Assembly: GCA_002897775.1 (NCBI GenBank)
Contig: BDTR01000030.1
Location: 128,070 to 192,069, forward strand
Direction of reading: 5' to 3'
DNA length: 64,000 bases
From: a bacterium BMS3Bbin08
GTDB taxonomy: Bacteria; Nitrospirota; Thermodesulfovibrionia; UBA6902; BMS3Bbin08
Shown: one piece after another, positions 24,493 through 64,000 of the stretch
How positions within the stretch are numbered: position 1 is the stretch's first letter
Layout: each line of letters begins with the position of its first letter
Position numbers and translations under genes: made by a program
The notes under the pieces: generated by a model
What the model was told of the DNA's origin: nothing
Databases searched by the model: none
Seen by the model: the letters and a program-made list of their open reading frames with translations, nothing else

Positions 24493-24495
24493 TAA

Positions 24496-26821
<2,326 letters not shown>

Positions 26822-26822
<1 letters not shown>

Positions 26823-27688
26823 TGAGTGATACGATCAAAAACCGCTATGAGTTTGTCCTGTTGTTTGACGTAAAAAATGGAAATCCGAATGGTGACCCGG
26901 ACGGAGGGAATCTTCCCCGGATCGATCCCGAGACCGGGCATGGAATCACAACGGATGTCTGCCTGAAGCGTAAGATTCGAAATTACGTGGAGTTGGTTAA
27001 GGATAATAAGACACCGTTTAATATTTACGTTAAGGAAAAAGCGATTCTTACAGAACGTCGGCAGCCAGCCTATGAGGCAGTGGCAGACGAAAAAGATAAA
27101 TCTGCAAAAATCAGCAAAGCACGAGCCTGGATGTGCAAAAACTTTTTCGATGTTCGGACTTTCGGCGCTGTCATGTCGGTAAAAGAAAACAACTGCGGCC
27201 AAGTGCGAGGTCCGGTGCAGTTTGCCTTTTCGCAAAGTATCGATCCAGTCGTCCCACTGGAAGCAAGTATTACCCGAATGGCTGTAGAGACCAAAAAGGA
27301 ATCATACGCCCAGGATGGAGACAACCGGACCATGGGCCGGAAGACTTATATCCCCTACGGCCTGTATCGTGTTCACGGTTTTATCTCAGCACCACTTGCC
27401 AAACAGACCGGTTTCTCCGAAGAGGACCTTGAATTGTTCTGGAATTCCCTGCAAAACATGTTCGATCACGACCGGTCCGCGGCCCGTGGCGAAATGGCGG
27501 CTAGGAATTTGATCGTCTTCAAGCACGACAGCGAACTTGGCAACGTCCCGGCCCATAAGCTCTTTGATTTAGTAAAAGTATCGCGTTCAAATGACAGCAA
27601 CGGGCCTGCACGGGTATTTTCAGACTATGAGGTGAAAGTTGACAGCGCAAATGTTCCGGGAGGCGTAACTCTAGAGGAGAAGTTTTGA
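26822..27688 (+). CDS. cas7: Cas7c (Csd2) backbone subunit, type I-C
   Basis: [27 protein letters not shown] is the Csd2/DevR family N-terminus. Confidence 0.9.
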
Positions 27689-28258
27689 ATGACTGAAAAG
27701 AAACAATCACCCCAACTAATCCCCCCGCACGGCGGTTACCAGGAACTCCAGTCCTACAAGATGTCGGAGATCGTGTATGACGCTACAGTAGTATTCTGCA
27801 ACCGCTTCATCAACATCCGCTCCCGCACTCATGACCAGATGGTGCAGGCGGCGCGAAGCGGGAAGCAGAATATCGCTGAGGGCAGCATGGCATCGGGCAC
27901 TTCAAAGAAGTTCGAGCTTAAGCTCGTCAGTGTGGCGCGGGCAAGCCTTGAAGAAGTGCTTCTGGATTTTAAGGACTATCTGAGGCAGAAGGGGCTTGTG
28001 CTTTGGACAAAGGATCATCCAAAGGCCGGTGAAGTGAGAAAACTCTGCTATCAAAAGAATAGGTCTTATACGACTTATAAGACCTATCTTGAGCAGTCGC
28101 CACCGGAGGTGGCGGCCAATACCATGATCTGTCTGATTCACCAGACAAACTATCTGCTGGACAAGCAGTTAAGGGCCCTTGAACAAGCCTTTCTGAAAGA
28201 AGGCGGCTTTACTGAAAGACTCTACCATGCGCGATCAGGGTCGCGCAAAAAGAAATAG
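27689..28258 (+). CDS. four-helix-bundle protein (23S rRNA intervening-sequence / Avd-like family) with a ~70-aa C-terminal extension, embedded in the cas operon
   Basis: LQSYKMSEIVYDATVVF...QMVQAARSGKQNIAEGSMASGTSKKFELKLVSVARASLEEV matches the family pattern (Y.L...NIAEG.....KEF......A.GSL.E). Its start overlaps the cas7 stop (TGAATG). cas4 starts 9 nt after its stop. Confidence 0.65.
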   Translation: MTEKKQSPQLIPPHGGYQELQSYKMSEIVYDATVVFCNRFINIRSRTHDQMVQAARSGKQNIAEGSMASGTSKKFELKLVSVARASLEEVLLDFKDYLRQKGLVLWTKDHPKAGEVRKLCYQKNRSYTTYKTYLEQSPPEVAANTMICLIHQTNYLLDKQLRALEQAFLKEGGFTERLYHARSGSRKKK

Positions 28259-28266
28259 GTCATATA

Positions 28267-28940
28267 TGAGTTATAAGCCCTATAAAGAAGATGATCTTGT
28301 TCAGCTTTCAGCCTTACAGCATTTTGCTTTCTGTGAGCGGCAGTGCGCGCTGATTCACATTGAACAGATATGGAGCGAGAATATGTTCACTGCTGAAGGA
28401 AAGATCATGCATGAAAGGGTGGATACTTCAAAGTCTGAATCACGGGGAGCAGTCCGCATGGAATTCAGTGTGCCTTTGCGTTCACTCAGACTCGGACTGA
28501 CCGGCAAGGCTGATGTTGTTGAATATCACAGGCAGGATGATGGGACATGGTTGCCCTTCCCCGTGGAATACAAACGCGGTAAACCAAAGGCGGATGATTG
28601 CGACAAGGTCCAGCTCTGCGCGCAGGCAATGTGCCTTGAAGAGATGATGAGTGTTGAAATACCGAAAGGAGCTTTGTTTTACGGTCGGATCAGGCGGAGA
28701 GAAGATGTGATCTTTGACAATGCATTACGAAAGGAAACAGAAAATACTGCGAAAAAGGTTCACGAGCTTATTGAATCACAAAAAACTCCTGGACCTGAAT
28801 ATTCAAAAAGATGCAAATCCTGTTCATTGTTTCAGCAGTGCATGCCTGAGCTGTGCTCGAAAAAGAATAAAGCAAGCAGATATCTGTCAAATATTTTAAA
28901 ACAACTGGATGCTGAGGTCTCGAATAATGGGACAGGCTGA
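28267..28940 (+). CDS. cas4: Cas4 (RecB-like nuclease with a 4-Cys cluster)
   Basis: MSYKPYKEDDLVQLSALQHFAFCERQCALIH begins with a Cys. C-terminal cysteines CKSCSLFQQC. Canonical position before cas1. Confidence 0.88.
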
Positions 28941-28962
28941 GTCAGGCGTGACAGGTTAAATC

Positions 28963-29994
28963 ATGAAAAAACATCTTAACACATTATTCGTCACCACCCA
29001 GGGGGCATATCTTTCCAAGGATGGGGAAACCGTGTCAGTTAAGGTTGATGATGAAATCCGCTTGCGTATTCCAATTCACACAATTGGCGGTATTGTATGT
29101 TTCGGTCAGGTAAGCTGCAGTCCTTTTTTAATGGGGTTTTGCGCTAAAAATAACGTTGCTGTATCATTCCTGACTGAATACGGACGCTTTCTGGCAAAGG
29201 TTCAGGGGCCGGTATCCGGGAATGTGCTGTTACGAAGGGAACAATACCGGCTTGCTGATGATGAGACTGTTTCTTTAAATATTTCCAAATCAGTTATTAC
29301 AGGCAAACTTGTTAATACCAGAACAGTATTGCAGAGGTTTTTGAGAGACCACGCCGATAAACCAAATGCAGATGCAGTGAAACAGGCGTCAAAACTTATA
29401 AGCTCAACATTAAGACGGGTATATAACGAAACCTCGCTTGACGTGATAAGAGGATTTGAAGGAGATTCGGCTCGTATCTATTTCAGTGTTTTCGATAATC
29501 TTATCACTGCCAGTAAGAAAGAATTCTTTTTCAGGGAACGTAACAGGAGGCCTCCTTTGGATAGGGTGAACTGTCTGTTGTCATTTCTGTATACGATTGT
29601 AATGCATGATGTACGCTCTGCGCTTGAGACAGCAGGGCTTGATCCGGCGGTAGGGTTCCTCCACAAAGACCGGCCGGGCAGGTATGGACTCGCGCTGGAT
29701 ATGATGGAGGAATTCAGGCCGTTTCTTGCTGACAGGCTGGTTCTTTCTCTGATAAATCTCAGTCAGGTCAATGCAAAGGGATTTGAAGAAAAAGAAAATG
29801 AAGCTGTGCTAATGGATGATGATACAAGAAAGGCTGTCCTTGTTGCATATCAGAACCGGAAACAGGATGAGATTATGCATCCATTTCTTAATGAAAAAGT
29901 GACGATTGGATTGCTTTTTCATACGCAGGCATTATTGCTTGCAAGATATTTGCGCGGCGATTTGGATGCTTATCCGCCCTTTATCTGGAAGTGA
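28963..29994 (+). CDS. cas1: Cas1 integrase, type I-C
   Basis: 343 aa with the typical Cas1 sequence. Confidence 0.92.
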   Translation: MKKHLNTLFVTTQGAYLSKDGETVSVKVDDEIRLRIPIHTIGGIVCFGQVSCSPFLMGFCAKNNVAVSFLTEYGRFLAKVQGPVSGNVLLRREQYRLADDETVSLNISKSVITGKLVNTRTVLQRFLRDHADKPNADAVKQASKLISSTLRRVYNETSLDVIRGFEGDSARIYFSVFDNLITASKKEFFFRERNRRPPLDRVNCLLSFLYTIVMHDVRSALETAGLDPAVGFLHKDRPGRYGLALDMMEEFRPFLADRLVLSLINLSQVNAKGFEEKENEAVLMDDDTRKAVLVAYQNRKQDEIMHPFLNEKVTIGLLFHTQALLLARYLRGDLDAYPPFIWK

Positions 29995-30474: not shown

Positions 30475-31536
30475 GTCGCCCCCCATGCGGGGGCGTGGAT
30501 TGAAACCATATTAATTTGTATGGGCACGCCTGAAGGTTCGTCGCCCCCCATGCGGGGGCGTGGATTGAAACTTGCTAATACACTTTCATTTGAGATAGCG
30601 CATGGTGTCGCCCCCCATGCGGGGGCGTGGATTGAAACGCTTACCATCAATACAAACTGCTGAATATGCGTGTCGCCCCCCATGCGGGGGCGTGGATTGA
30701 AACTAGATAATCGCTGTTGGATACGCCAAGCAGTAAGTCGCCCCCCATGCGGGGGCGTGGATTGAAACTTGATAGCACTGATGGAGATACAGAAGAAACT
30801 GCGTCGCCCCCCATGCGGGGGCGTGGATTGAAACCTGTTAATATTGCAGGGATGGGTCAAATAGAAGTGGTCGCCCCCCATGCGGGGGCGTGGATTGAAA
30901 CTTAAAGAAAGTAACATATTCAAAAGAAAAAACAAGTCGCCCCCCATGCGGGGGCGTGGATTGAAACTAAAGTGTTCACGGCGTTGGCTTCACTGGACAC
31001 TAGTCGCCCCCCATGCGGGGGCGTGGATTGAAACAAATTAGTTTAACTAATGGAGGTGGCGGCATGGAAGTCGCCCCCCATGCGGGGGCGTGGATTGAAA
31101 CCCCGATTCAGGCAGAGGATTTTATCTTCGAGGCCGTCGCCCCCCATGCGGGGGCGTGGATTGAAACTATCTTCTTAGGATCATAGGTAACGCTTACACG
31201 TGTCGCCCCCCATGCGGGGGCGTGGATTGAAACAGTTTTGGGTTTTATAATTATTGATTCCATAGTCGTCGCCCCCCATGCGGGGGCGTGGATTGAAACT
31301 TGATAGCCATAGGTTTTTCGCACAATAAATAATGTCGCCCCCCATGCGGGGGCGTGGATTGAAACTGTCAATAATGTAACCAGCAATATCGGAGGTAACA
31401 TGTCGCCCCCCATGCGGGGGCGTGGATTGAAACGGCGCAAAGCTGTTCTATGTATACGACAGGACGTTGTCGCCCCCCATGCGGGGGCGTGCCTGTCTGC
31501 CGGTCTACGACTCGTATAGTAGGCAGGGATTGAAAC
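30475..31536 (+). CRISPR. CRISPR array: 16 repeats of the type I-C 32-bp repeat GTCGCCCCCCATGCGGGGGCGTGGATTGAAAC and 15 spacers of 33-35 bp. The last repeat carries a 36-bp insertion. A ~180-bp AT-rich leader lies between cas2 and repeat 1.
   Basis: Repeat starts at 30475, 30540, 30607, 30672, 30737, 30803, 30870, 30936, 31003, 31070, 31136, 31202, 31268, 31334, 31403 and 31469. Repeat 16 is split as GTCGCCCCCCATGCGGGGGCGTG, then 36 bp, then GATTGAAAC. Confidence 0.97.
31492..31527. mobile_element. 36-bp palindromic insertion (CCTGTCTGCCGGTCTACGACTCGTATAGTAGGCAGG) inside CRISPR repeat 16, between GCGTG and GATTGAAAC
   Basis: The repeat is otherwise intact on both sides. The termini CCTGyCTGCC/GGCAGG are inverted. 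The same left junction recurs at 35094. Confidence 0.7.
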
Positions 31537-48047: not shown

Positions 48048-50267
48048 TTGTCAATAGCAAAATGGCAGGCCCTTTATTATTGGAGATTTCTGGTAAAATC
48101 TGGCATATTACAGGGGTCTCCGCAGCGGCTTCCGATGATCTCAGGGAGTTTTAACAATATAAAAATGAAACAGCAATTTGAGAGGATCATCAGATATATA
48201 GCAGACCCCGGCAAAGGTGCCGGATCAGGCCTGAAGATAAATATCAGGGAACAGTTCCAGCCTGATGAACAGGACAGCCATTCTGTAGCAAGGAACCTTA
48301 ACGCCGCTTTCCTGATAGCCTTATCAGGGGAATCACATTATTTGTATGATAAGGCACTGGGATATCTGAACGGACATGAGGGCCATACTTCATGGGGCAG
48401 GACAGCAGGATTTTATAAGGACGGACTCAGGCTCGTACTTTCAGAGATATCAGGCAGATGTTCTGCTGATGAGGACCTCAAAAAAGGCCTGACAGATCTT
48501 TATTCATGGATCAGAGGCCAGGAGGCCGGTCACAACCCTGAAAAGACGGTTGAAATGTTCCATCAGGTCTTCTTTCCAGAGGGGGTATCTTTACTGGACG
48601 AGCAAAACAGGAAAGAAAAGATCAACTCCCTCAGAGAACAAAGAAAGATCAGGATCTCGAAGCTGAACCCCTCACCAATCAATGATCCGGCCAAAGAGGT
48701 CCTGTTTACGTCAAATATACTTGTTACAGTTCCTCCGGCGTCAGATGATATCCAGGGTCTTTCTGTAAGCGGCCATCTCAAGCAGATGCTAAAAGATATA
48801 AGCCGGGAAGATCAGGCCTTTTGGTATGACCATCCCATACCCATCGGGGTCTCACCCTGGCATAATGAGGCCTTATACGGCCTTGAAGGTCTGGACGAGG
48901 CGGTGTCGTTTGAAAAGCAGAGGGGAACGCTTGACAGTGATAGCAGGCTCACATGTGTTCTTTCAGCCTCTGCGACCCATAAGGGACTCCAGGGGATAGT
49001 AAAGGAGTATCTTGAGGACGAGTTCAAAAAAGAAAAGAACATCCGCCATCTTGATGTCTATGTTTTTACTGAGGCCGACACCCTGGAACTTGTGAACGAG
49101 ATCCTTATTCCGGCGGCTGAAACGTATCTTGGCGCCGGAGAACACGGCATACTTTATGAAATTGTAGGTGTTGACGGAGAGTATGGCAGGCATTATAGTT
49201 TTCTAAGGGCTGTATCAGCGTTCTGGCAGGTCCTTATCGCTCCTGAGATCAAAGGAACCTTTAAGATCGATCTTGACCAGGTCTTTCCCCAAAAAGAGCT
49301 CCGGGAGCAGACAGGTATGTCAGCGTTCGGGCATTTTAAGACGCCTCTGTGGGGCGCGGAAGGTATCGATATCCGGGACAACAAGGTGGAGCTCGGTATG
49401 ATCGCAGGCGCGCTTGTGAACCAGGAGGATATTGATAAATCCCTGTTCTATCCTGATGTCCGTTTCCCTGACAGGGGAATTAACGCGGATGAATTTGTGT
49501 TTTTCAGCACGCTTCCACAGGCCCTGTCCACAGAAGCGGAGATGATGACGCGTTACACGGATAATATGTTTGACGGTAAAAAGCAGTGTATCCAGCGTAT
49601 GCATGTTACAGGCGGGACCAGCGGCATACTTGTGGACTCGTTAAGGAAATATCATCCCTTTACACCGACTTTCATAGGCCGGGCGGAAGACCAGGCATAT
49701 ATAATGTCCGTACTGTTCACTGACCCGCAAAAAAATTTACGCTATGTACATAAAGACGGCCTGATAATGAGGCATGACAAAGAGGCCTTTGCAAAAGAGG
49801 CGATAAAAATGGCCGCAGCCGGAAAACTTACCGGAGATTACATACGGATCCTCATTTTTTCATATTATGTAAATGCCCTGCCCTGGCCGTTCGAGGACAT
49901 CAAGAAAACAATTGGCCCGTTCACAGGCTGTTTTGTATCAAAGATCCCGCTTACAGTTGTATATTTAAGGTTTGCACTGAAAATAGCCTCTTTTTTTGAT
50001 AATGAAACACAGGAACACAGAAGCCAGGGCTTTGAACTTCTGAAAACAGGCAGTAAACGCCTGCATGAAACCATTAAAAAACTGGTTGAAGCCCCGGACC
50101 TTTTGAATGAGCAGTTTCATAAAGAGAAAAAGGGGTGGAAGCTTTTTTATGATATACTGGATACCGTGGAGAAAAAACTTGGACAGAATGATAAGTTCGC
50201 GCTTGATCTGAAGAAAAAAGCAGAAGCACTGGTTAGAGGATGCAGGATAAATTTTGAAGTAAAGTGA
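48048..50267 (+). CDS. large hypothetical protein (about 700-739 aa; start may be the internal Met at 48166)
   Basis: Long ORF with no recognisable motifs. Confidence 0.55.
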   Translation: MSIAKWQALYYWRFLVKSGILQGSPQRLPMISGSFNNIKMKQQFERIIRYIADPGKGAGSGLKINIREQFQPDEQDSHSVARNLNAAFLIALSGESHYLYDKALGYLNGHEGHTSWGRTAGFYKDGLRLVLSEISGRCSADEDLKKGLTDLYSWIRGQEAGHNPEKTVEMFHQVFFPEGVSLLDEQNRKEKINSLREQRKIRISKLNPSPINDPAKEVLFTSNILVTVPPASDDIQGLSVSGHLKQMLKDISREDQAFWYDHPIPIGVSPWHNEALYGLEGLDEAVSFEKQRGTLDSDSRLTCVLSASATHKGLQGIVKEYLEDEFKKEKNIRHLDVYVFTEADTLELVNEILIPAAETYLGAGEHGILYEIVGVDGEYGRHYSFLRAVSAFWQVLIAPEIKGTFKIDLDQVFPQKELREQTGMSAFGHFKTPLWGAEGIDIRDNKVELGMIAGALVNQEDIDKSLFYPDVRFPDRGINADEFVFFSTLPQALSTEAEMMTRYTDNMFDGKKQCIQRMHVTGGTSGILVDSLRKYHPFTPTFIGRAEDQAYIMSVLFTDPQKNLRYVHKDGLIMRHDKEAFAKEAIKMAAAGKLTGDYIRILIFSYYVNALPWPFEDIKKTIGPFTGCFVSKIPLTVVYLRFALKIASFFDNETQEHRSQGFELLKTGSKRLHETIKKLVEAPDLLNEQFHKEKKGWKLFYDILDTVEKKLGQNDKFALDLKKKAEALVRGCRINFEVK

Positions 50268-53458: not shown

Positions 53459-53686
53459 TTATATGAGTTTCTTGAACTCATCAACAGATAAATTTGCCTG
53501 TTTTAAGATATGTGATAAGGTTGACCTCTTGATGGGTTTGTGTGCTGGAACTGTGAGTTTTAAGGTCTTTTCTGAGGTGTGCTTATGTAACCTGATATGA
53601 CTGCCTTTTTGTCGAACCACGACCCATCCATTACGGCGTAGAGCTTTAACGATCTGTTCATAATTTAAGCTCGGAACCTTTGTCAT
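53459..53686 (-). CDS. hicA: HicA-family mRNA interferase toxin
   Basis: 75 aa. GWVVVRQKGSHIRLHK is the YcfA/HicA motif. Confidence 0.75.
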   Translation of the reverse strand: MTKVPSLNYEQIVKALRRNGWVVVRQKGSHIRLHKHTSEKTLKLTVPAHKPIKRSTLSHILKQANLSVDEFKKLI

Positions 53687-53904
53687 ACAGTGACTTCAAG
53701 AACTCGCGCTTCTGGATTAAATTCAATATCGTCTTCGATTGGCTCAAGATACAATTCAATAGCTTCTCGAATGTGGCTTAGTGCTTCTTCCTGTGTATCA
53801 CCTTCACTAATACAGCCTGGAAGTGACGGAACAATAGCCGTGAATCCTCCTTCATCGCTCGGCTCTAAAATTACTTTAAGTTTCATCTTTAAACCTCCAA
53901 CCAT
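53683..53904 (-). CDS. hicB: HicB-family antitoxin (UPF0150)
   Basis: 73 aa. EGGFTAIVPSLPGCISEGDTQEEALSHIREAIELYLE. Overlaps hicA by 4 nt. Confidence 0.75.
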   Translation of the reverse strand: MVGGLKMKLKVILEPSDEGGFTAIVPSLPGCISEGDTQEEALSHIREAIELYLEPIEDDIEFNPEARVLEVTV

Positions 53905-54900: not shown

Positions 54901-56022
54901 TCAGCCCGCCGCCTTTTTCTCCTTTTCTTTTTTCTCAGTCACGCAGTATATGCCGCCTTCTTCAAGCCCGGGCTTAAAACAGCTGTTGCATGATATGCAC
55001 TTTGCCGGACTGTGGTCGCCTTCTTTCCAGCGGTTCGGCAGGTTCGGCTCGCGGATAAACGGCCTGGCCATTGATATATAGTCTACACTGCCGCTGCTTA
55101 CTGCTTTTTCAGCTACATAATATGACCTGAACCCTCCCACTGCCATTACAGGACAGCTGACCGCCTGTTTGATTCTGCGCGCCAGGTCCAGGTTATACGC
55201 CTCTTTTTCAGGCATGTTTATCTGCGTACGCGCAGGGCTTTCATCGCCTGACGACTGGGTGCCCGCGGAGACCTCTATGGCGTCAATGCCGTCATCTGAA
55301 AGTTTTTTTGCGGCATAGACCGCGTCGTCGATCTCCAGGCCGCCTTTAAGGTTGTCCGCGGCATTGAGCTTGATAAGCACAGGATAATCCTCGCCAACTG
55401 TCTGCCGCACCTTTAGATACACCTGCAGAAGAAACCGGCTGCGGTTTTCAATACTGCCGCCGTATTCATCAGTGCGCCGGTTTGTAAGAGGGGAAAGGAA
55501 CTGGTTGATAAGATAGCCGTGCGCGCCGTGCAGTTCGACCGCGTCAAAGCCCCATGCCTTTGCCCGGCGGGCTCCGTCCGCGAACGCCGTAGCAATATCA
55601 TATATCTCATCTTTTGTAAGTTCAGCAGGTGTCTCAGGGAACTGGTCGACCTTGATAGCTGAAGGCGCAAGGGGCTGGCGTCCGGCGGTTGCTGAATCGG
55701 TCTGTCCGCCGGCATGGACCAGCTGGACGGCGATCTTGCCGCCTGCCTCATGCACAGCAGTGGTCATTTTTCTGAAGTCGTCGGAAAAATCATCTGTATG
55801 TATGCCCATTTTAGCGGGAAGCCCTTTTCCCTCCGGCCTTACAAAAGTATAGCCTGTAATGATCAGGCCTACACCGCCCTGTGCCAGATCACGGTAACAG
55901 TTGATCAGTTTTTCAGTGGGCCTTCCGTCCTGTTCGCACATGCCTTCCCATGTAGCGGACCTTACGAGCCTGTTCCTCAGGGTCATACCTTTAATTTCAG
56001 TTTCTTCAAATAATGCAGCCAT
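54901..56022 (-). CDS. Old Yellow Enzyme family NADH:flavin oxidoreductase
   Basis: LRNRLVRSATWEG...HGAHGYLINQFLSP...AVGGF are OYE TIM-barrel motifs. Confidence 0.85.
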   Translation of the reverse strand: MAALFEETEIKGMTLRNRLVRSATWEGMCEQDGRPTEKLINCYRDLAQGGVGLIITGYTFVRPEGKGLPAKMGIHTDDFSDDFRKMTTAVHEAGGKIAVQLVHAGGQTDSATAGRQPLAPSAIKVDQFPETPAELTKDEIYDIATAFADGARRAKAWGFDAVELHGAHGYLINQFLSPLTNRRTDEYGGSIENRSRFLLQVYLKVRQTVGEDYPVLIKLNAADNLKGGLEIDDAVYAAKKLSDDGIDAIEVSAGTQSSGDESPARTQINMPEKEAYNLDLARRIKQAVSCPVMAVGGFRSYYVAEKAVSSGSVDYISMARPFIREPNLPNRWKEGDHSPAKCISCNSCFKPGLEEGGIYCVTEKKEKEKKAAG

Positions 56023-56301
56023 ATAATGCCTCCTCTTCTCCGGCTTTAAAAAATTAAGAATTAACTTTGAGCCTGGACACTATTTTATCAGCAAACATTT
56101 ATTTTATGCTTTTTTCGTTGTGGACTTCCAGAAGGGCGTCGAGGAGCACTTTTGGGTCAGACGGACCGCCCCGGCCTCAATAAGCAGTTCTCCGGGTCTT
56201 TTTTTGTTCTCCGGCATGATCGCCTCTGTAAATCCGGTACCAGGTTATATGGTTTAACTCATTTATATCAAAAGCCCTTTCCCCTGTCAACACGCACATA
56301 A

Positions 56302-56332
56302 AAAAGGGGTCTGGAATTTCCAGACCCCTTTT
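56302..56332 (-). terminator. intrinsic terminator for the minus-strand cytochrome operon
   Basis: GGGGTCTGGAA-TTT-CCAGACCCC hairpin, followed on the minus strand by TTTTTTAT. Confidence 0.6.
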
Positions 56333-56360: not shown

Positions 56361-56951
56361 TTATTTTTTTATATATTTTAAAGGAAAGTGCTTGTGAGTT
56401 TTTTTGAGCCTCTCTTTAAAATTAAACTTGTACTTGGCATCGAGCTTCTCGTTAAACGGGCTGTCACCGCCGTGACATACCAGGCAGGTCTTTTCATCTT
56501 CTGATGGAATTATAAGGCCTACTGACTTGAGTTCGTCCGAAGTATATCCATTCTCTTTCCATGTTTTTTTGTTCTTTTTCATAACTTTTTTGTAATTACT
56601 GCCCGGGCCGTGACACGCTTCACACTGCACGTTTGCCAGCTTTGGCGTCTCTTCCATGTTTTTGAATCCGCCCGGTTTGTCATAGCCTGTTGTGTGGCAT
56701 TTCAGACACTTGGCATCGGTTGTGTAGTCTTTGGCAGGATCCAGACCTGCTTTTTTCTTTTCTTCTACCTTTACATTGGGGTTGAGGTTCTCAAAGCTGT
56801 TTGCCATTGATGTTTTTTCCCAGGCCTTATACTGCTTTATATGGCATGCCTTGCATTTTTTCCCTCCGATGTAGTCAGCAGCGCCTGCTGTGCTTCCAAG
56901 GGCCATTAACAGTATCAACGAGAGAAGCACGGGGATTGTCCTCTTCATCAT
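56361..56951 (-). CDS. periplasmic tetraheme c-type cytochrome
   Basis: Signal peptide. Four CxxCH motifs (CKACH, CLKCH, CEACH, CLVCH). Confidence 0.85.
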   Translation of the reverse strand: MMKRTIPVLLSLILLMALGSTAGAADYIGGKKCKACHIKQYKAWEKTSMANSFENLNPNVKVEEKKKAGLDPAKDYTTDAKCLKCHTTGYDKPGGFKNMEETPKLANVQCEACHGPGSNYKKVMKKNKKTWKENGYTSDELKSVGLIIPSEDEKTCLVCHGGDSPFNEKLDAKYKFNFKERLKKTHKHFPLKYIKK

Positions 56952-57044
56952 TCTACGTCCTCCTTAGATAGAAAATTTGTAAAGTGAGCGGTATGTTTAC
57001 AATTCTTATTTTAAATAAAAATGTCTTACGGTGTCAATGAGAAA

Positions 57045-59315
57045 TTATTTTTCAGTCCGTGGCCCGAGGGGCCGTTTGTTGCGCGGTACACGCTCTATGG
57101 GATCATGGAAATACTTGTACCTGAAGAGCGCGTCAAGGCCGTGGCAGTCTATGCATATAGTGTTATAACTGATATTTCGCAGAAAACTGTTGGTTACATG
57201 ACCTTCCAGATTTTTGCCCACGCCCTTTTTTCTTTCCAGCGGGCTCCACTGGTGCGCGTTGTGGCATGATGGACAGGAAATATTGCCTACGTTTATCTCC
57301 CGGCCTTGATTATCATAAATCGGAGTATAGTCTATGGCCAGTCTGTTACAGTGCATGATATTATTGATCAGCCTGCCTTTTGGATGGGTCGCGATAAGCG
57401 GTATCTTGTTCTCCGCGACATTGCCTTTGGAATGACAGCTCAGGCACAGGGAATCCATAAAGGTTTGCTCGGCAGTATAGCTTCCGTAGGGCCTTGCCCA
57501 GAGCTTAATCTTATTGGGGCTGTTGTGGACAAGGTGACAGACACCGCACTGTCCGGACTGTTTCGGGGTCTGGCCAAGCAGGTTTTTGGCCTCAGGCGCA
57601 GTGACATTAAGGTCGTGGTCTGTGCCGTCGATATATGCCTTGTCAGCGTGGCAGCTTTCGCAGAGATCTGAAGAGGGTGAACTCGGCTTCCTGAGGAAGC
57701 TGTTCGAGGCATCGCCTTCTATATTCCTGTATTCATAGTTCTCTATTGGTTTTGCCGGGTCCCACACATGCGGGTCATGGCAGGTGATACAGACCATTTT
57801 ACCATTTGGTATTCTGTAGCCATCACTGTCATACAAAGGCAGGGTCGTTGTTATCTTGAACTTATCAAGGGTTACGTCAACCGGATGATAGATATCCCCT
57901 ATCAATTTTGCCTTTGCGGCGCCGTTCTTGTTATGGCACCCTGAGCATAACTGTGTTACAAAGTCCTTGTCTCCGGTAAGTTCTTTTGCCCACATATGGT
58001 CAGCTGCCGCGTTGTGAGGAATGTGGCACGCCCCGCATGGGCCCGACGCCTTTACAGTAAATCCCTGTATGTTCTTCTCAAGCGGAGCCGTGATATCAAG
58101 ATTATGGTCAGACATCGGCAGCTGTCTTTTGTCTATATGGCATTCCAGGCACAGTCCTGAGTCAGAGCTGTTGGGCAGCCTTAAAAAACTGTTCGATGAA
58201 TCGCCCTCAACATCCTTGCCGCCTTTGTTCGTGGGAGAGCTCGGGTCCCACCTGTGAATATTATGGCAGGTAAAGCACTGTACCTTGCCCTCGGGATTTG
58301 TCGCGCCGTCCGCTGAAAATAACGGAAGAACACCGGGTATTGTTGTTTCAGCGACCGGCTTCATGTTAATGGGATGTGAGTACTTGCCGATACGTTTTGC
58401 TTTGTATCCTGTGTCGTCTCCGTGACATGTAAGGCACATCTGCGAGGCGGGATTGCCCTGTTTAAGCGGCCTTGCCCAGAGTTTTTTGCCCGCTGCCCTG
58501 TGCGGTGTGTGGCATGCCCCGCAAGGGCCTGTTTCAGATAACTTCCTGCCTTTTATGTTCTTTTCATCCGGCATGGTCAGACGCAGATCATGCTTTGTAT
58601 CTATCAGGTCTCTTTGTTTTACATGGCAGGTCCTGCAAAGTTTTGAATCTTTATTGTCGATTACCAGTATTTTTTTCCCTCTGGCGCCGTGCACTTTGTG
58701 ACAGCTTTGACAGATCACCTTGTTCCTTTTGCTTGCCCTTTTGCCTCCCATCCTGAACAGCTCGTCAGGCAGTTCAAGGGCTGTGGAATCAAGAGGATGC
58801 CCGTTTGAACGCTTGTAGTCAGCCTCTTTCCTGTGGCACATCTTGCAAAGGCTTGAGTCCACGTTTTTTTCCCTGATGACCGAGGTCCGTCCCATCGGAT
58901 CGTCGTGCGGCGCGGCTCCCTTGCCGTGCGCGGAATGACAGGTCCCGCAGTATATCTCGCCTTTTACACTTAAAGGAAGATTTTCAGGGACCTGGATGTT
59001 CTTTGAGGGCTTTACAAAAGTCGGATGCCTGTTGTACTTCCAGGCAACGGCGCGGGAATCCAGCACATAGCCGTCATGACAGGTGTAACATATCGCTTCG
59101 GAACTGACAACGCCCTGCGTGTCTTTCATAAGCACATTACCCGGTTTCCATTCGATCAGGGTCTCTTTGTCGGTCCTGAAGTCGTCCATCCACATGACAT
59201 GGCAGACAACACAATCCCTTTTTGAGGATATCTCAAGGGCATGGGCAGGCAAAGAGAAAGCAAAGCATAGAAGAAAAGCCAGTAAATATATTGTTATTCT
59301 GGGCATAGTGAACAT
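57045..59315 (-). CDS. large multiheme c-type cytochrome (18 CxxCH motifs)
   Basis: 756 aa. Signal peptide. 18 CxxCH haem-binding sites. Confidence 0.88.
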   Translation of the reverse strand: MFTMPRITIYLLAFLLCFAFSLPAHALEISSKRDCVVCHVMWMDDFRTDKETLIEWKPGNVLMKDTQGVVSSEAICYTCHDGYVLDSRAVAWKYNRHPTFVKPSKNIQVPENLPLSVKGEIYCGTCHSAHGKGAAPHDDPMGRTSVIREKNVDSSLCKMCHRKEADYKRSNGHPLDSTALELPDELFRMGGKRASKRNKVICQSCHKVHGARGKKILVIDNKDSKLCRTCHVKQRDLIDTKHDLRLTMPDEKNIKGRKLSETGPCGACHTPHRAAGKKLWARPLKQGNPASQMCLTCHGDDTGYKAKRIGKYSHPINMKPVAETTIPGVLPLFSADGATNPEGKVQCFTCHNIHRWDPSSPTNKGGKDVEGDSSNSFLRLPNSSDSGLCLECHIDKRQLPMSDHNLDITAPLEKNIQGFTVKASGPCGACHIPHNAAADHMWAKELTGDKDFVTQLCSGCHNKNGAAKAKLIGDIYHPVDVTLDKFKITTTLPLYDSDGYRIPNGKMVCITCHDPHVWDPAKPIENYEYRNIEGDASNSFLRKPSSPSSDLCESCHADKAYIDGTDHDLNVTAPEAKNLLGQTPKQSGQCGVCHLVHNSPNKIKLWARPYGSYTAEQTFMDSLCLSCHSKGNVAENKIPLIATHPKGRLINNIMHCNRLAIDYTPIYDNQGREINVGNISCPSCHNAHQWSPLERKKGVGKNLEGHVTNSFLRNISYNTICIDCHGLDALFRYKYFHDPIERVPRNKRPLGPRTEK

Positions 59316-59328
59316 GTGACCCGTTTTT

Positions 59329-60258
59329 TTAATCCAGTATTTTCAATACAGTTATTTTATTGCTTCTCATCTCCACTACAAGCAGTTTATTATTATCTAT
59401 GAACATTCCCACAGGTGTATTAAATTTTCTTAACGTTCCCTTTTTGCACAGGGCCCCGATAAAACGTCCCATGTCAGTGAAGACCTGTATGACCCCCATA
59501 TAGCTGTCGCTGATGAATACCCTGCTTTTGCCGTCCACTGCCACCCCTTTTGGTCTGAAAAGATTACCTGGGAGAACACCCCATGAACCTATATCAGCTA
59601 TGAATTTTCCAAAAGGGTCGAATTTCTGAACCCGGGTGTTAAGCACATCAACAACGAATATTTCATTGAACTGGTTTATTGCCAGAATGCCCGGATAACG
59701 GAACTCCCCGTATTGCTCTCCCTGTTTTCCCCATTCAAACTCAAAAGTTCCGTTCTGCTTATATACCTTAATTTTGTGATTGTCATTGTCAGAGATATAG
59801 AGGTAATTTTTGAGTTTGGATACGAGGACGTCAACGGGGTCGGACGGCCGTTCACCCTTACCGCTATTGACAGTGAACATATATAGGAAATTCCCCTTTG
59901 GATCGAAGACCTGAACCCTGTGGTTCCCGGTATCAGCTATGAACACTTTCCCGTTATCGGATATGTCTATTCCAACGGGCTGTTTGAACTGTCCTTTTCC
60001 CGTGCCCCATCTGCCAAATGAGAATTTCCATTTCCCCCTTTTGTTGACAACTATTATCCTGTTGTTCACTCCGTCAACCAGATATATGTCGCCGTTAGGC
60101 CCTATAGCCAGATCGCTCGGCTGGTCAGCGTTGGGTTTGATCTCAAAAAGGGATCTTGTGTTTATGCATTCAACAGCTGGAGATACACTCGGAGCAAACA
60201 GGACGGAAAGGATCGCTATAAGAAAAAAAAAGCCAGAGATGAATCTTTTCTTAATCAA
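59329..60258 (-). CDS. NHL-repeat (six-bladed beta-propeller) periplasmic protein
   Basis: Signal peptide. Repeated YVVD/FVAD-type NHL blades (NNRIIVVN, NHRVQVFD, NHKIKVYK, NTRVQKFD). Confidence 0.75.
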   Translation of the reverse strand: MIKKRFISGFFFLIAILSVLFAPSVSPAVECINTRSLFEIKPNADQPSDLAIGPNGDIYLVDGVNNRIIVVNKRGKWKFSFGRWGTGKGQFKQPVGIDISDNGKVFIADTGNHRVQVFDPKGNFLYMFTVNSGKGERPSDPVDVLVSKLKNYLYISDNDNHKIKVYKQNGTFEFEWGKQGEQYGEFRYPGILAINQFNEIFVVDVLNTRVQKFDPFGKFIADIGSWGVLPGNLFRPKGVAVDGKSRVFISDSYMGVIQVFTDMGRFIGALCKKGTLRKFNTPVGMFIDNNKLLVVEMRSNKITVLKILD

Positions 60259-60353
60259 GCAAATAACTATCCCTTCAAATACAAATAGCCTTTCCGGCCA
60301 AAAAAGCAGGATGTTTTTTTTTATACATTATATATTTTATACCCGAACCTCTA

Positions 60354-61181
60354 CTATTTGAAGAGGTTCGGTATATAAAATTTCTCATATTTGGTAATCA
60401 TACCGGCGATATTCAACTGTTCAAGGTCGACTATCCTGTTTTCAGCAAAACCGAGTTTCCTGAAATCGAGAAGACCTTTCTTGGAATGGCAAACCTTGCA
60501 TTCATGTCCCTTGGGCTTGGTAGAAACATGGAACTTCTTTTTAACATTTTCTCTCTGCACAGGGGTAAGCTGGTCCCTGACTCTCATATAATCCTGCGCC
60601 AGGTCGGATTCCTGATGCTGGATGGCAGACAAAAGAGTATCTCCTGATTTGAAGTAAGGAGCTATTCTGGAGAACTGGTCTTTGACCGGCACAAGGTTTC
60701 CTGTTTCAGGGTCATAGCTGGTTCCGAAAAACGGGCCTTTTGGCTCTTTTTCAAGAGGGTTATACCATTTATAAACAATTTCATACCCTTTCTTTTCCTG
60801 AATGTGGCATGTCTCGCATACAAAGAACTGGGTATGCATGTTCAAAAGCGCCCTGACCTTTTTGTTCTTGCTGTGAGGATAATCAGAGTGGCATATAAAA
60901 CATACCGTGAGTTCCTTCCCGGGAAGCGTCGGGTATTCAACAACATTATGGAAATGCCTGTGTTTTTCATATTCTTCCTGGCGCTTGACGTCTTCCAGGA
61001 TAGCGGACCTTTTCTTCTCCTCCATCTTTTTCTGAAACGGCACCAGGATGGCGGGACCATGATGAGAAAATGTGAGATGGTACAGCACGGCGCCCAGCAC
61101 GGCAAGCGTGATGATTATGAAGACAAAGGCTATCAGAAGGACTATTTTCGGGTGGTCTAATCTTTTTGGTTCTCCTGGCAC
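60354..61181 (-). CDS. membrane-anchored triheme c-type cytochrome
   Basis: N-terminal TM helix. CFICH, CETCH, CKVCH. Confidence 0.8.
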   Translation of the reverse strand: MPGEPKRLDHPKIVLLIAFVFIIITLAVLGAVLYHLTFSHHGPAILVPFQKKMEEKKRSAILEDVKRQEEYEKHRHFHNVVEYPTLPGKELTVCFICHSDYPHSKNKKVRALLNMHTQFFVCETCHIQEKKGYEIVYKWYNPLEKEPKGPFFGTSYDPETGNLVPVKDQFSRIAPYFKSGDTLLSAIQHQESDLAQDYMRVRDQLTPVQRENVKKKFHVSTKPKGHECKVCHSKKGLLDFRKLGFAENRIVDLEQLNIAGMITKYEKFYIPNLFK

Positions 61182-62069
61182 TTAAAGGTCACCTCCTTTA
61201 GACTCAAATCCTTTTTCTTTTAATATCTTTTTCATATATTCTCTTTCTTCGGGTATCTCTTTAAGGTTGTTCAGATATTCAAGAAAGTGTTCTTCTATCT
61301 GGTGCTCTCTTGTTATTTTGCCTGTCAGGAACGTCCACTGCAGAGGGAACCTGCCCGGCACAACGTGGACATTTGACCAGTGCCAGAAAACTATGACCGT
61401 AATGGCCATGATCGCCTCGTCAGCGTGCATTAACCTCGCGAGGTCCTGGAAAAAAGCGGGATTCGGCCAGATAGTTGCCATCATCTCGGGGAATAACAGG
61501 GTTATACCAGCGCTTATAAGCACAAACGTTCCCCATAAGATAGCAAGGTAATGGAGCTTCTGCTTGTACATGAATTTTTCCATTTTGGGACGGAACTGTT
61601 CACGTCCGAAAAAGTATTTTATATCATGAACCAGGTCGTGAAGGTCTTTGAGTCTTGGGATCTGGGTCTTTTTAATGTCAAACTGTTTTTTCATGACCTT
61701 GTGGAGAGTGCCGCCAATAATCGTGAGAAGATGGTATATGCTTGCCGCGACCATTACAGCAGCGGCCATTTTATGCACTAACCGCGCGTTGTCAGTGCCG
61801 CCAAAGAGAAATGTGATCTGACGCGCCCACCACAGGTCACTGAAATGAAGCGACAGGCCTGTTGCTGCCAGTATGAGAAAAGCCACAAAAGTCAGAAAGT
61901 GCTGGATCACTATATGTATCGAGTACCTCGGCAGGTCGCCCAGGGGATCGGACTTTACATGTTTATATATGTCCCGGGGAATGGCCCCGACACCTTCGAC
62001 ATGGGTATAATATGATTCAGCTGTTTCTTCATCACCCATGGTCTCGATATTTTCAGCAGAAGTAGACAT
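61182..62069 (-). CDS. integral-membrane b-type cytochrome (FdnI/HydC-like dihaem cytochrome b family)
   Basis: Four or five TM helices with conserved His residues (HADEAIMA, HKMAAAVM). Confidence 0.65.
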   Translation of the reverse strand: MSTSAENIETMGDEETAESYYTHVEGVGAIPRDIYKHVKSDPLGDLPRYSIHIVIQHFLTFVAFLILAATGLSLHFSDLWWARQITFLFGGTDNARLVHKMAAAVMVAASIYHLLTIIGGTLHKVMKKQFDIKKTQIPRLKDLHDLVHDIKYFFGREQFRPKMEKFMYKQKLHYLAILWGTFVLISAGITLLFPEMMATIWPNPAFFQDLARLMHADEAIMAITVIVFWHWSNVHVVPGRFPLQWTFLTGKITREHQIEEHFLEYLNNLKEIPEEREYMKKILKEKGFESKGGDL

Positions 62070-62086
62070 AATCCCTCCAATATTTA

Positions 62087-63166
62087 TTAATTTTTAGGCT
62101 CGCGTTTTGATTTCCCGCGCCATGTTGTGCCGCCTTTTATCTGCCACTTGATGCCGTCCCTCTTCCTGCCGATCGTTTCGATCAGCGCGAGGAACATCAG
62201 GCCGAAAATAGTGCTGTAAAGCGCTCCTCTTAAACCCAGGTTCATAAAAAACAAGATTGGCTTTTTATTATTGATACTGGAATGAACATCGATCTGGATA
62301 AACCTTTCATTAACCTTCCTATGACATTGTCGACAGATCTTGGCACGGTTAGCCGGGTTGATCGTGGCTTTTTGGTTGTCTTTTTTATAGATATCATGTA
62401 TCGCGCTTGTCGCATGGCAGCTTATACAGTCAGCGGTTTGCTGGGAACCAAGCGCCACTGCCTTGCCGTGAATTGATTCGTTATAGGTCTCGACCGCCTC
62501 CACGCTTTCTTTTGAGACATTGAATTTTTTCATCTTCTCCACATCTTCATGACAGTTCTTGGAGCATAATTGTACGATTTCCTGGGGTGAGCGTGAAGTT
62601 TTGTGAGCAAGCCTGTGAGTAACATGCTTATACGCCTGGGTAACGCCTTTTTTCTCATGGCAGTTAAAACATCTGGCCAGGGTTTTTTCATAAGAAATAC
62701 GCTTTTCGGAAACCCTCGTGTAGATAGGGTTCAGATGACAGTATTTACAATACGGCTTAGCCAGTTTCAGGTCAGGCGAGTCATTCTCTTTTATAGCGTG
62801 GACGCTCTTGTTATAAATATTTATGATCTTCCTGTGAGAAAAGTTCTCCTTCGCGAACGGCGGCTTGATGTGGCATTCGTTAGCGCAGCTTACCTCTTCG
62901 GTCACAGGGTCGTGCGGGAGCCTGGTGATATACGTGTGACAGTCCCTGCAGGGAACGTTCCTGTGGACGGTGTTCGCGTAGATATTTTCATTCACATTGT
63001 AATTCTTTTTTCTGCCCTGTTCGTCGATCCTTCCAAGCTGCCTGTACTTATGGCACATTAGGCAGTTTTCCTTGTCCGCGGCCTCTGCCCGGAAGCCAAA
63101 GGATAACACCATAAGCAACATCAGGAAGTATAAAGAAGGTTTTATGAAAATTTTTGATAACTTCAA
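62087..63166 (-). CDS. multiheme c-type cytochrome (8 sites, two of CxxxCH type) with a C-terminal TM anchor
   Basis: CLMCH, CRDCH, CANECH, CKYCH, CFNCH, CSKNCH, CISCH, CRQCH. Confidence 0.85.
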   Translation of the reverse strand: MKLSKIFIKPSLYFLMLLMVLSFGFRAEAADKENCLMCHKYRQLGRIDEQGRKKNYNVNENIYANTVHRNVPCRDCHTYITRLPHDPVTEEVSCANECHIKPPFAKENFSHRKIINIYNKSVHAIKENDSPDLKLAKPYCKYCHLNPIYTRVSEKRISYEKTLARCFNCHEKKGVTQAYKHVTHRLAHKTSRSPQEIVQLCSKNCHEDVEKMKKFNVSKESVEAVETYNESIHGKAVALGSQQTADCISCHATSAIHDIYKKDNQKATINPANRAKICRQCHRKVNERFIQIDVHSSINNKKPILFFMNLGLRGALYSTIFGLMFLALIETIGRKRDGIKWQIKGGTTWRGKSKREPKN

Positions 63167-63194
63167 ATCTTGCCCCTCCTTATTATATATTTAT

Positions 63195-63995
63195 CTATTT
63201 TTGATGACACGCCATGCACATTCGGCCCGGCAGACGAAGCCTGTATTTTTCATCGGCGCCTTTTGCCCCTTTCCGGGCGGCGGGTATCACGCCTTTTTCA
63301 TGGGGGTTATGACAGGTAACACAGGTGATCTTTCCATTATCAAGAGGAAGAACTATGTTGAACTGTTTCTCACCCTGTTTCATTACTTTTAAGGTCATGG
63401 CAGAGGGCTTGCGCAGGTGGTCCGCGTTTGCCGGGTGATCCCGCTCGCCATGACACCTCTGGCACAGTACCTCCAGGTTGCCGACAAGTTTCACATCCTT
63501 AAAGCGCGCGTGTTTTTCGTCAGGCTTTTCCACGTGACAGTACAGGCACTTTTCTACGACTATATCTCCGTTCTTGGTCAGCTGGTTATGAGGGTCAAGC
63601 ATCTTGTACTTGCGTTCATCATGGCACCTGAAACATAAGTCAGTCCTTTTTGCGAACGGAGCCCCCCTTAAAAACCTTTTATTCAGAACTTTTAAACGAT
63701 CTTTCCCCTCGCACTGCATAGAAATATCATGACATGTTAAACATGTGAGCTTTCCGTCTTCAAGAGGAAGGTCCTTGGGGATCACCTTCTTTTTTTCATC
63801 GGACGGCACAATGTTCACAGGATGGATATAGGTGCCCGGCGTATAGCCGTGGCACCTGCACAGCTGGGTGTAGTCACCTGCGAACTTCAAAAACTTCTTC
63901 CCGCCTTTTTTAGGGACCTTTTCATGACATTCCGGGCAGTACTTGCCCGTGTAATGCACATCAGTGGTTTCCGGCAAAGTCTCTACGGCTGTCAC
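63195..63995 (-). CDS. multiheme c-type cytochrome (at least 7 CxxCH); the N-terminus probably runs off the window
   Basis: CPECH, CLTCH, CFRCH, CLYCH, CQRCH, CVTCH, CMACH. No signal peptide within the window. Confidence 0.75.
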   Translation of the reverse strand: MTAVETLPETTDVHYTGKYCPECHEKVPKKGGKKFLKFAGDYTQLCRCHGYTPGTYIHPVNIVPSDEKKKVIPKDLPLEDGKLTCLTCHDISMQCEGKDRLKVLNKRFLRGAPFAKRTDLCFRCHDERKYKMLDPHNQLTKNGDIVVEKCLYCHVEKPDEKHARFKDVKLVGNLEVLCQRCHGERDHPANADHLRKPSAMTLKVMKQGEKQFNIVLPLDNGKITCVTCHNPHEKGVIPAARKGAKGADEKYRLRLPGRMCMACHQK

Positions 63996-64000
63996 TGGTT

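Follow-up and report, generated by a model that had tools for sequence, protein, structure and literature searches.

Which electron-transfer system is encoded by seven genes that stand head to tail at the end of a stretch of Nitrospirota DNA, and that bring together five multihaem cytochromes c, a cytochrome b and an NHL-repeat propeller? The stretch, called the window throughout, comprises 64,000 nucleotides of the bacterium BMS3Bbin08 (contig BDTR01000030.1, positions 128,070 to 192,069, forward strand). Extracellular and periplasmic electron-transfer routes are well worked out in Shewanella and Geobacter only, and how the quinone pool is linked to the outside in sulfur-cycling Nitrospirota, Desulfobacterales and sediment Gammaproteobacteria is mostly guesswork; the seven-gene cluster, or cassette, is a testable candidate for such a link. 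The role favoured here, with a probability of about 0.6, is that of the inner-membrane and periplasmic half of a quinone-linked electron-transfer conduit with periplasmic or extracellular partners. That the conduit ends outside the cell in this organism is about half as probable. An initial annotation, made from the DNA letters, had proposed a quinol-linked periplasmic or extracellular conduit among its possibilities, and this has remained the best reading of the cluster.

The cluster and its boundaries

From position 56361 to the end of the window the minus strand carries seven open reading frames (ORFs) head to tail, designated g1 to g7 in the order of transcription and separated by successive gaps of 28, 17, 0, 95, 13 and 93 bp. 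The genes and the signals associated with them are as follows (aa, amino acids):

g1, 63195-64000, minus strand: 7-haem cytochrome c with 7 CxxCH motifs; 317 aa at full length, partial in the window
g2, 62087-63166, minus strand: 8-haem cytochrome c of 359 aa with 6 CxxCH and 2 CxxxCH motifs
g3, 61182-62069, minus strand: cytochrome b of 295 aa without Cys, with four hydrophobic helices
g4, 60354-61181, minus strand: trihaem cytochrome c of 275 aa with 3 CxxCH motifs
g5, 59329-60258, minus strand: NHL propeller of 309 aa with NHL repeats
g6, 57045-59315, minus strand: 18-haem cytochrome c of 756 aa with 18 CxxCH motifs
g7, 56361-56951, minus strand: tetrahaem cytochrome of 196 aa with 4 CxxCH motifs
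57008-57037, minus strand: candidate sigma70-like promoter in the g6-g7 gap, TTGACA-18-TAAAAT, 11 of 12 positions, a consensus match only
56299-56332, minus strand: intrinsic terminator after g7, with a 14-bp GC-rich stem and a U-run

The seven co-directional genes, their coordinates, the haem counts of 7, 8, 3, 18 and 4, the cytochrome b and the NHL protein agree exactly with what the initial annotation had listed. The five cytochrome genes contain 38 CxxCH motifs in 1,857 aa, as against none in the full set of ORFs of 100 aa or more between positions 1 and 56000 of the window, which total 24,975 aa, and a chance origin of the haem motifs is thereby excluded. According to hydropathy, the products of g1, g5, g6 and g7 possess only a cleavable signal peptide, g2 combines a signal peptide with one C-terminal helix, g4 has one N-terminal helix and g3 has four.

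The hairpin of the terminator, located about 30 nucleotides (nt) past the g7 stop codon, has a folding energy of -23.4 kcal/mol (z = -5.95 against shuffled sequences), and a TTGACA...TATAAAT-like box for the next gene lies beyond it. Hence, the seven genes end as one bounded unit. An old-yellow-enzyme gene (54901-56022) was considered as a member of the cluster and rejected, since the terminator and the promoter-like box separate it from g7 and the adjacency is not conserved. Within the g6-g7 gap, AAGGAGG and the ATG of g7 come after the sigma70-like box, so that g7 may have an extra promoter and be transcribed on its own as well.

Identical genes are present in assembly GCA_011040835.1 and in several metagenomes, and the nearest homologues bear Nitrospirae or Thermodesulfovibrionia names. 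The identical contigs also reveal what precedes g1 beyond the window; in one of them (L002) the upstream region holds a tRNA-Ser gene, GIY-YIG genes and serS. As a separate observation, the segment L002:3388-4278 consists of the tRNA-Ser gene and two near-identical small ORFs of GIY-YIG type with tRNA-like flanks, a structure that may be a repeated mobile or integration-site element at the cassette border.

The membrane module g2-g3-g4

The two cytochromes c with a single transmembrane helix and the cytochrome b had been suggested to form one membrane module, and natural fusion proteins together with a nearly universal gene order bear this out. In the protein P0124 (878 aa; Joint Genome Institute (JGI) metagenomes, a cluster of 9) counterparts of g2, g3 and g4 follow each other in the gene order, at 38%, 49% and 29% identity, respectively, with the g4-like part joined to the C-terminus of the cytochrome b (E = 1e-35). 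Fusions of the c and b parts (g2 and g3) occur in P0123 (626 aa, from a metagenome-assembled genome (MAG) of Desulfobacterota, MCX8045058.1) and in P0137 (603 aa). The topology of the fusions is self-consistent: a periplasmic cytochrome c is followed by a helix running inward, the four helices of the b domain, a helix running outward and a periplasmic trihaem domain. Since the three proteins are found fused in gene order, they form one membrane module, which would hold two b and eleven c haems on six helices. The natural three-way fusion protein is, in addition, a ready target for expression and structure determination of the module.

The start codon of g2 is uncertain, the protein having 359 aa from a TTG in the ORF list and 344 aa in public gene calls. 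Its hydrophobic C-terminal helix covers residues 311-332, and the gene ends 17 bp upstream of g3. The total of 8 haem sites is also that of the gammaproteobacterial and Desulfobacterota proteins, where it is reached as 7+1. A sequence search of the PDB gave no close solved relative for g2 or g3, and a weak match of g2 (28pb_A) spans only the first two haem motifs.

The cytochrome b encoded by g3 scores 31.0 bits against PF01292 (cut-off 30.1) and 38 bits against TIGR01583, the formate dehydrogenase gamma subunit, which is below the cut-off of 115.85. It is not an equivalog of that subunit, given this score and a cluster without any molybdopterin or iron-sulfur (FeS) subunit of the FdnG/FdnH type. 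Its sole PDB relative by sequence is FdnI (1kqf_C, E = 0.05), which is also the best fold match of a moderately confident AlphaFold2 (AF2) model (pLDDT, the predicted local distance difference test, 64; Foldseek probability 1.0; 20% identity). An alignment of 13 diverse relatives, with identities down to 31%, showed that His57 in transmembrane helix 1 (TM1), His99 and His113 in TM2, and His215, His230 and His235 in TM4 are invariant. These six histidines would suffice for the bis-His ligation of two b haems without a contribution from another subunit. From its sequence, g3 is presumed to be a four-helix dihaem cytochrome b of the FdnI/HydC type with a quinone/quinol site. At least 120 close homologues share 72-85% identity with it, and 1,555 relatives emerged when 1.84 billion representative proteins were searched exhaustively, many of them long proteins with the b domain in a central or C-terminal position.

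The GTG start codon of g4 abuts the stop codon of g3, and the single transmembrane helix of the protein is formed by residues 13-31. None of its 436 homologues carries a meaningful name; they appear as 'hypothetical' or, in a few cases, under a spurious TFIIS auto-annotation. The family is strongly conserved, its motifs including HRHFH and CxxCHS..PHxK. No Pfam family reaches its cut-off with g4, the AF2 model is poor (pLDDT 55.6) and Foldseek matches of this model against the PDB were uninformative. An assignment to NapC/NirT/NrfH was considered on account of the N-terminal helix and rejected, the protein having only 3 CxxCH motifs and no PF03264 match; a precomputed PF03264 mark is found on just 2 of 120 g4 homologues. 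The protein is the third subunit of the membrane module and represents an unnamed family.

Conservation across three phyla

A genome scan with one genome per species identified 498 genomes with a relative of g3, the best 80 of which were inspected for the cassette. All seven proteins were mapped onto 89 loci, and the count of the downstream gene order was limited to the 58 loci with at least 4.5 kb of downstream sequence. Identity to g3 amounts to 72-78% in Nitrospirota/Thermodesulfovibrionia (66% in one locus), 61-67% in Desulfobacterales and 47-55% in Gammaproteobacteria, the carriers in this last group being Thiohalophilus, Thiogranum, Acidiferrobacteraceae, Arenicellales, Ectothiorhodospiraceae and Chromatiales.

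Adjacency and order of g2, g3 and g4 are kept in nearly all of the 89 loci. The series g3-g4-g5-g6 occurs in order in 49 of 58 (Nitrospirota 19/21, Desulfobacterales 6/9, Gammaproteobacteria 24/28), and g2 is immediately preceded by a homologue of g1 in 25 of the 27 loci of Gammaproteobacteria, 8 of the 13 of Desulfobacterales and 4 of the 23 of Nitrospirota. The gene g7 is confined to the lineage of the window itself (L001-L003). The haem counts are likewise common to the three phyla, with 7-8 in g1, 8 in g2, 3 in g4 and 18 in g6. The core of the cassette is the membrane trio; the NHL protein and the 18-haem cytochrome are its usual companions, g1 accompanies it frequently, and g7 has been added locally. 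The NHL propeller had been regarded at first as an unusual partner. Its presence after the membrane trio in 49 of 58 loci, distributed over three phyla, together with published clusters of NHL proteins and cytochromes, shows on the contrary that this is a recurrent association.

The unit has also been duplicated as a whole. Two tandem copies of g2-g6, the second of them divergent, are present in 14 Nitrospirota loci (L007:8883-20873 and 13 others, e.g. L010-L012, L014, L015, L022, L024, L025, L028-L030, L035 and L037). The two copies are only 26-48% identical, which indicates an old duplication of the whole unit with both copies kept. The lineage of the window has one copy only. The trio is found without the NHL plus 18-haem pair in L018, L034, L047, L051, L041 and L085, where L018 retains the NHL gene. 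L018 and L034 are complete MAG chromosomes, and some of the trio-only loci may reflect masked sequence or rearrangement.

The secreted components

The reading frame of g1 is open to base 64000, the last of the window, and its full length was seen in the identical contigs L001-L006. The 51 residues missing from the window constitute the signal peptide and contain no further haem site. In sequence the protein resembles the tetrahaem modules of g6, of which it is a shorter relative (28% identity, E = 5e-15).

The product of g5 scores 83 bits against PF01436 (NHL) and matches solved NHL domains in the PDB at E = 3e-48, as a six-bladed propeller. Its signal peptide lacks a lipobox. The residues kept in all of 17 orthologues from the three phyla are structural ones of the NHL blades (Gly, Asp, Pro, Arg and Phe), with no Cys or His among them. 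This lack of conserved redox residues is in keeping with a scaffold rather than with a redox or catalytic function, and g5 is probably a secreted non-redox scaffold.

The 18-haem cytochrome g6 is built from an N-terminal region with 5-6 haems, three tandem tetrahaem modules of about 163 aa each (residues 222-384, 384-547 and 547-716) and a C-terminal haem. Its 40 His are sufficient for bis-His ligation of all 18 haems. It scores 121 bits against Paired_CXXCH_1 and has no close relative in the PDB; the architecture is that expected of a secreted periplasmic haem wire.

The small cytochrome g7 scores 94.8 bits against PF13435 (cut-off 20.8) and 124.8 bits against the NCBIfam model Cyt554_Nsmonas, below the cut-off of 400. 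It is a secreted tetrahaem cytochrome of the c554 family, added in this lineage, and probably acts as a soluble carrier.

Neighbouring modules in related loci

Related loci show what may adjoin the cassette. A second module abuts it in at least 11 loci of Gammaproteobacteria and 2 of Desulfobacterales, and is formed, in order, by a 4-haem cytochrome, an NHL lipoprotein, a secreted protein of about 670-700 aa, another NHL lipoprotein and an 11-haem relative of g6 (L087:763-7558, L044:15094-20086, and the equivalents in L048, L057, L066, L067, L069, L073, L076, L080, L085, L086 and L089). The protein of about 670-700 aa has a C-terminal Phe or Trp in all 12 cases, the usual ending being ...RRDF, and contains almost no Cys; it has no match in Pfam, NCBIfam or the PDB. 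Together with the cytochromes around it, it looks like a putative outer-membrane barrel complex that was previously undescribed. Neither a homologue of this candidate barrel nor any other part of the second module is present in the 64-kb window.

Just upstream of g2, 16 Nitrospirota loci (L007:5682-8656 and 15 others) carry divergent genes for a HAMP histidine kinase and a sigma54-type response regulator; in the lineage of the window this position is occupied by g1. The region that precedes the cassette showed no -24/-12 sigma54 consensus in five loci, and a conserved sigma70-like box of the type TTGACA-N17-TAATAAT is located there instead of a sigma54 promoter.

A proposed electron route and its alternatives

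The components could be arranged into the following route. By electron exchange the trio g2-g3-g4 would link the menaquinone pool to the periplasm, in the manner of CbcBA, the quinol oxidase that Geobacter uses for low-potential extracellular acceptors, complemented with an extra subunit. The 8-haem arm of g2 and the 3-haem arm of g4 would act as electron relays that connect the outer b haem with soluble partners. Across the periplasm the electrons would be carried by the 18-haem g6, positioned by the g5 propeller, and g1 and g7 would serve as further carriers. The far end may be an outer-membrane module or a periplasmic redox partner, in exchange with minerals, partner cells or insoluble sulfur or iron phases, and electrons could flow either outward, with oxidation of quinol, or inward, with uptake into the quinone pool. 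The kinase and the sigma54-type regulator found upstream in 16 loci parallel BccR, a sigma54 regulator that adjoins cbcBA, and were counted in favour of this proposal.

Several observations weigh against it. The resemblance of g2-g3 to the Cbc proteins, suggested by architecture and by the published descriptions of CbcA and CbcB, is imperfect where the b haems are concerned: CbcB supplies three of the four haem-ligand His and CbcA the fourth, whereas g3 bears all four candidates itself. Quinone binding by g3 would follow from family resemblance, with a marginal match to PF01292 and an AF2 model at pLDDT 64. The trio-only loci indicate that the two parts of the cassette can be uncoupled. The window encodes no outer-membrane component, which leaves an extracellular end point hypothetical in this organism. 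Finally, one of the cytochromes could contain a catalytic haem, especially g7, which has only two His besides the four of its CxxCH motifs.

The alternative that survives best, itself rather unlikely, is a route committed to the inward direction, in which electrons from reduced periplasmic or extracellular donors would pass through g6 and g1 to the b/c module, which would reduce menaquinone on the cytoplasmic side, generate proton-motive force and feed sulfate reduction. In formate dehydrogenase-N (PDB 1kqf), FdnI reduces menaquinone on the cytoplasmic side and the resulting redox loop makes proton-motive force; a cytochrome b of the FdnI type such as g3 would conserve energy when working in this direction. 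A reversal of CbcBA has been proposed for Seep-SRB2, which are syntrophic sulfate reducers, and the clusters of NHL proteins and cytochromes in D. ferrophilus have been linked to electron uptake from solids. Moreover, the carriers of the cassette include lineages of sulfate reducers and chemolithotrophic Gammaproteobacteria related to electron-uptake specialists. On the other hand, the sequence does not give the direction, Geobacter, the sole organism with genetics, uses the related module outward, and no dsr, qmo or other sulfate-reduction genes are present in the window.

An enzymatic function is improbable, and somewhat more so. The cassette would then encode a periplasmic reductase or oxidase of a soluble substrate (polysulfide, thiosulfate, sulfite, nitrite, hydroxylamine or chelated Fe being the candidates), with a catalytic haem in g6, g1 or g7 and the b/c module as the electron supply. 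The hosts are sulfur-cycling organisms (Thermodesulfovibrionia, Desulfobacterales and sulfur-oxidising Gammaproteobacteria), multihaem proteins are known that act as enzymes with no other cofactor, such as the pentahaem polysulfide reductase MccSep, and the window without an outer-membrane component would suit a periplasmic enzyme. As for g7, it belongs to the c554 family, whose Nitrosomonas member serves hydroxylamine oxidation, and its His are too few for four bis-His haems. However, g7 is the sole candidate for unusual ligation and is absent from the cassette in all other lineages mapped, while the His of g6 and g1 are sufficient for an all-bis-His ligation and the repeated tetrahaem modules of g6 are typical of wires, not of enzymes. 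Neither CxxCK nor any other known catalytic haem motif occurs in g1-g7, and no match to NrfA, HAO, MccA, octahaem tetrathionate reductase or any equivalog was above its cut-off. The nitrogen or sulfur oxyanion reductase module, which the initial annotation had entertained as a second possibility, has thus found no positive evidence: the cluster contains no molybdopterin or FeS subunit, no protein of the NrfA or HAO type and no equivalog-level match.

That the seven genes are chance or recently shuffled neighbours without a common function, as might be argued from a g7 that is lineage-specific and may have its own promoter and from a g1 that is missing in many Nitrospirota versions, is effectively refuted by the fused membrane subunits and by gene order and haem counts kept across three phyla, in addition to gaps of 0-95 bp, a single terminator after g7 and the duplication of the cassette as a whole unit in some loci.

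Other features of the window

Apart from the cassette, the window contains a type I-C-like CRISPR-Cas locus (22315-29994), with a Cas3 HD-helicase at 22315-24492 and Csd1 at 25140-26822, and a CRISPR array at 30672-31300, whose 32-nt repeat is GTCGCCCCCCATGCGGGGGCGTGGATTGAAAC and whose spacers measure about 34 nt. At 53459-53904 the minus strand carries two short ORFs that overlap; the one of 73 aa is annotated as a HicB-like antitoxin in an identical contig, and its 75-aa partner looks HicA-like by eye. An ORF of 739 aa at 48048-50267 has no Pfam match at E <= 1e-5.

Implications

Considered together with the second module of the related loci, the cassette could be the inner half of an envelope-spanning conduit of an undescribed kind, although only tentatively so. 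A soluble pair of NHL protein and wire, g5-g6, would stand in the periplasm, a pair of NHL lipoproteins would flank a new family of barrels of about 670 aa at the outer membrane, and the b/c trio would feed the conduit. If this were the case, g4 would define a new protein family, and sulfate-reducing Nitrospirota and Desulfobacterales would share one electron route to solids or partner cells with sulfur oxidisers among the Gammaproteobacteria of sediments and vents. The cassette would then be a genomic marker for electron exchange of this type.

Comparison with known systems

Pairs of b and c cytochromes of the Cbc type, and NHL proteins next to cytochromes, were known before; what is new is a conserved cassette that combines a b/c module, an NHL protein and a haem wire, with an unnamed trihaem subunit. 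No characterised complex or publication with the gene order g1-g7 that could contradict the initial annotation was found in the PDB, NCBIfam or the literature searched, and neither NCBIfam nor Pfam names the cassette.

The closest parallel to the membrane module is CbcBA of G. sulfurreducens (GSU0593-0594), as judged from its published description, which lends substance to the earlier suggestion of a Cbc-like module, here with a trihaem subunit added. CbcA, whose gene immediately precedes that of CbcB, is a cytochrome c with 7 haems and an anchor at its C-terminus, and CbcB is a four-helix dihaem b related to the b subunits of hydrogenase and formate dehydrogenase; in the same way, g2-g3 consist of an anchored multihaem cytochrome c followed by a four-helix cytochrome b, with 8 haem sites in g2 as against 7 in CbcA. 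Homologues of CbcBA are often annotated as thiosulfate-reductase-like and occur in fused forms in other phyla. Similarly, several close homologues of g3 are auto-annotated as 'thiosulfate reductase cytochrome b', c-b fusions exist, and a divergent sigma54-type regulator is present in the 16 related Nitrospirota loci, but is absent beside the copy of the window's own lineage. The larger Geobacter complex Cbc5 (cbcEDCBA) comprises in addition the 12-haem OmcQ/CbcC, the HAMP dihaem CbcD and the membrane protein CbcE. None of these three is present here; the NHL protein and the 18-haem cytochrome are found instead, and the A/B pair alone is shared. Conversely, the trihaem g4 is always present in the cassette and is not described for Cbc5.

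With FdnI (1kqf_C), g3 shares the four helices, the two b haems and the His pattern on TM1, TM2 and TM4. It differs from FdnI in having cytochromes c as partners in place of FdnG and FdnH, and in its additional N- and C-terminal cytoplasmic extensions. Among the secreted components, g7 resembles cytochrome c554 (CycA) of Nitrosomonas, being a secreted tetrahaem protein of about 170 residues that covers the whole of PF13435 and nearly the full Nitrosomonas model; it lacks an HAO or cM552 partner, however, and its score is well below the equivalog cut-off. MccSep (GSU2936), a selenoenzyme of sulfur respiration that is common in Thermodesulfovibrionia, was also considered and is unrelated to the genes of the cluster.

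At the level of the whole envelope, the proposed route recalls porin-cytochrome conduits such as MtrCAB, the Geobacter systems Pcc and Ext, and UetA-J of Tenderia, in which multihaem proteins form a chain that starts at the quinone pool and crosses the envelope; in related loci a putative barrel is flanked by cytochromes. In contrast to these conduits, no barrel is encoded in the window, and the candidate barrel of the related loci matches no known family and is flanked by two NHL lipoproteins, unlike those of Mtr and Pcc.

Clusters that associate NHL proteins with multihaem cytochromes have been described in several organisms. In D. ferrophilus IS5 (DFE_448-451 and 461-465) the NHL proteins were proposed to stabilise an outer-membrane cytochrome complex for electron uptake, and in Ca. 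Tenderia electrophaga the NHL proteins UetH and UetI occur with UetJ. In Geobacter, GSU2505 stands by omcS and Gmet_0556 by Gmet_0557/0558, and NHL proteins next to multihaem cytochromes are also found in Gallionella and Geoalkalibacter. The role of scaffold or stabiliser given to NHL proteins in these clusters has been put forward as a proposal only. The pair g5-g6 resembles the clusters of D. ferrophilus, Tenderia and Geobacter in that a secreted NHL propeller is encoded next to a large multihaem cytochrome, 13 bp apart. As far as their descriptions go, the published clusters are outer-membrane or extracellular systems with no mention of a cytochrome b, whereas g5 has no lipobox, the window holds no porin, and the pair g5-g6 is tied to a b/c module that would be quinone-linked. 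The cassette offers a defined setting for learning what an NHL propeller does beside multihaem cytochromes.

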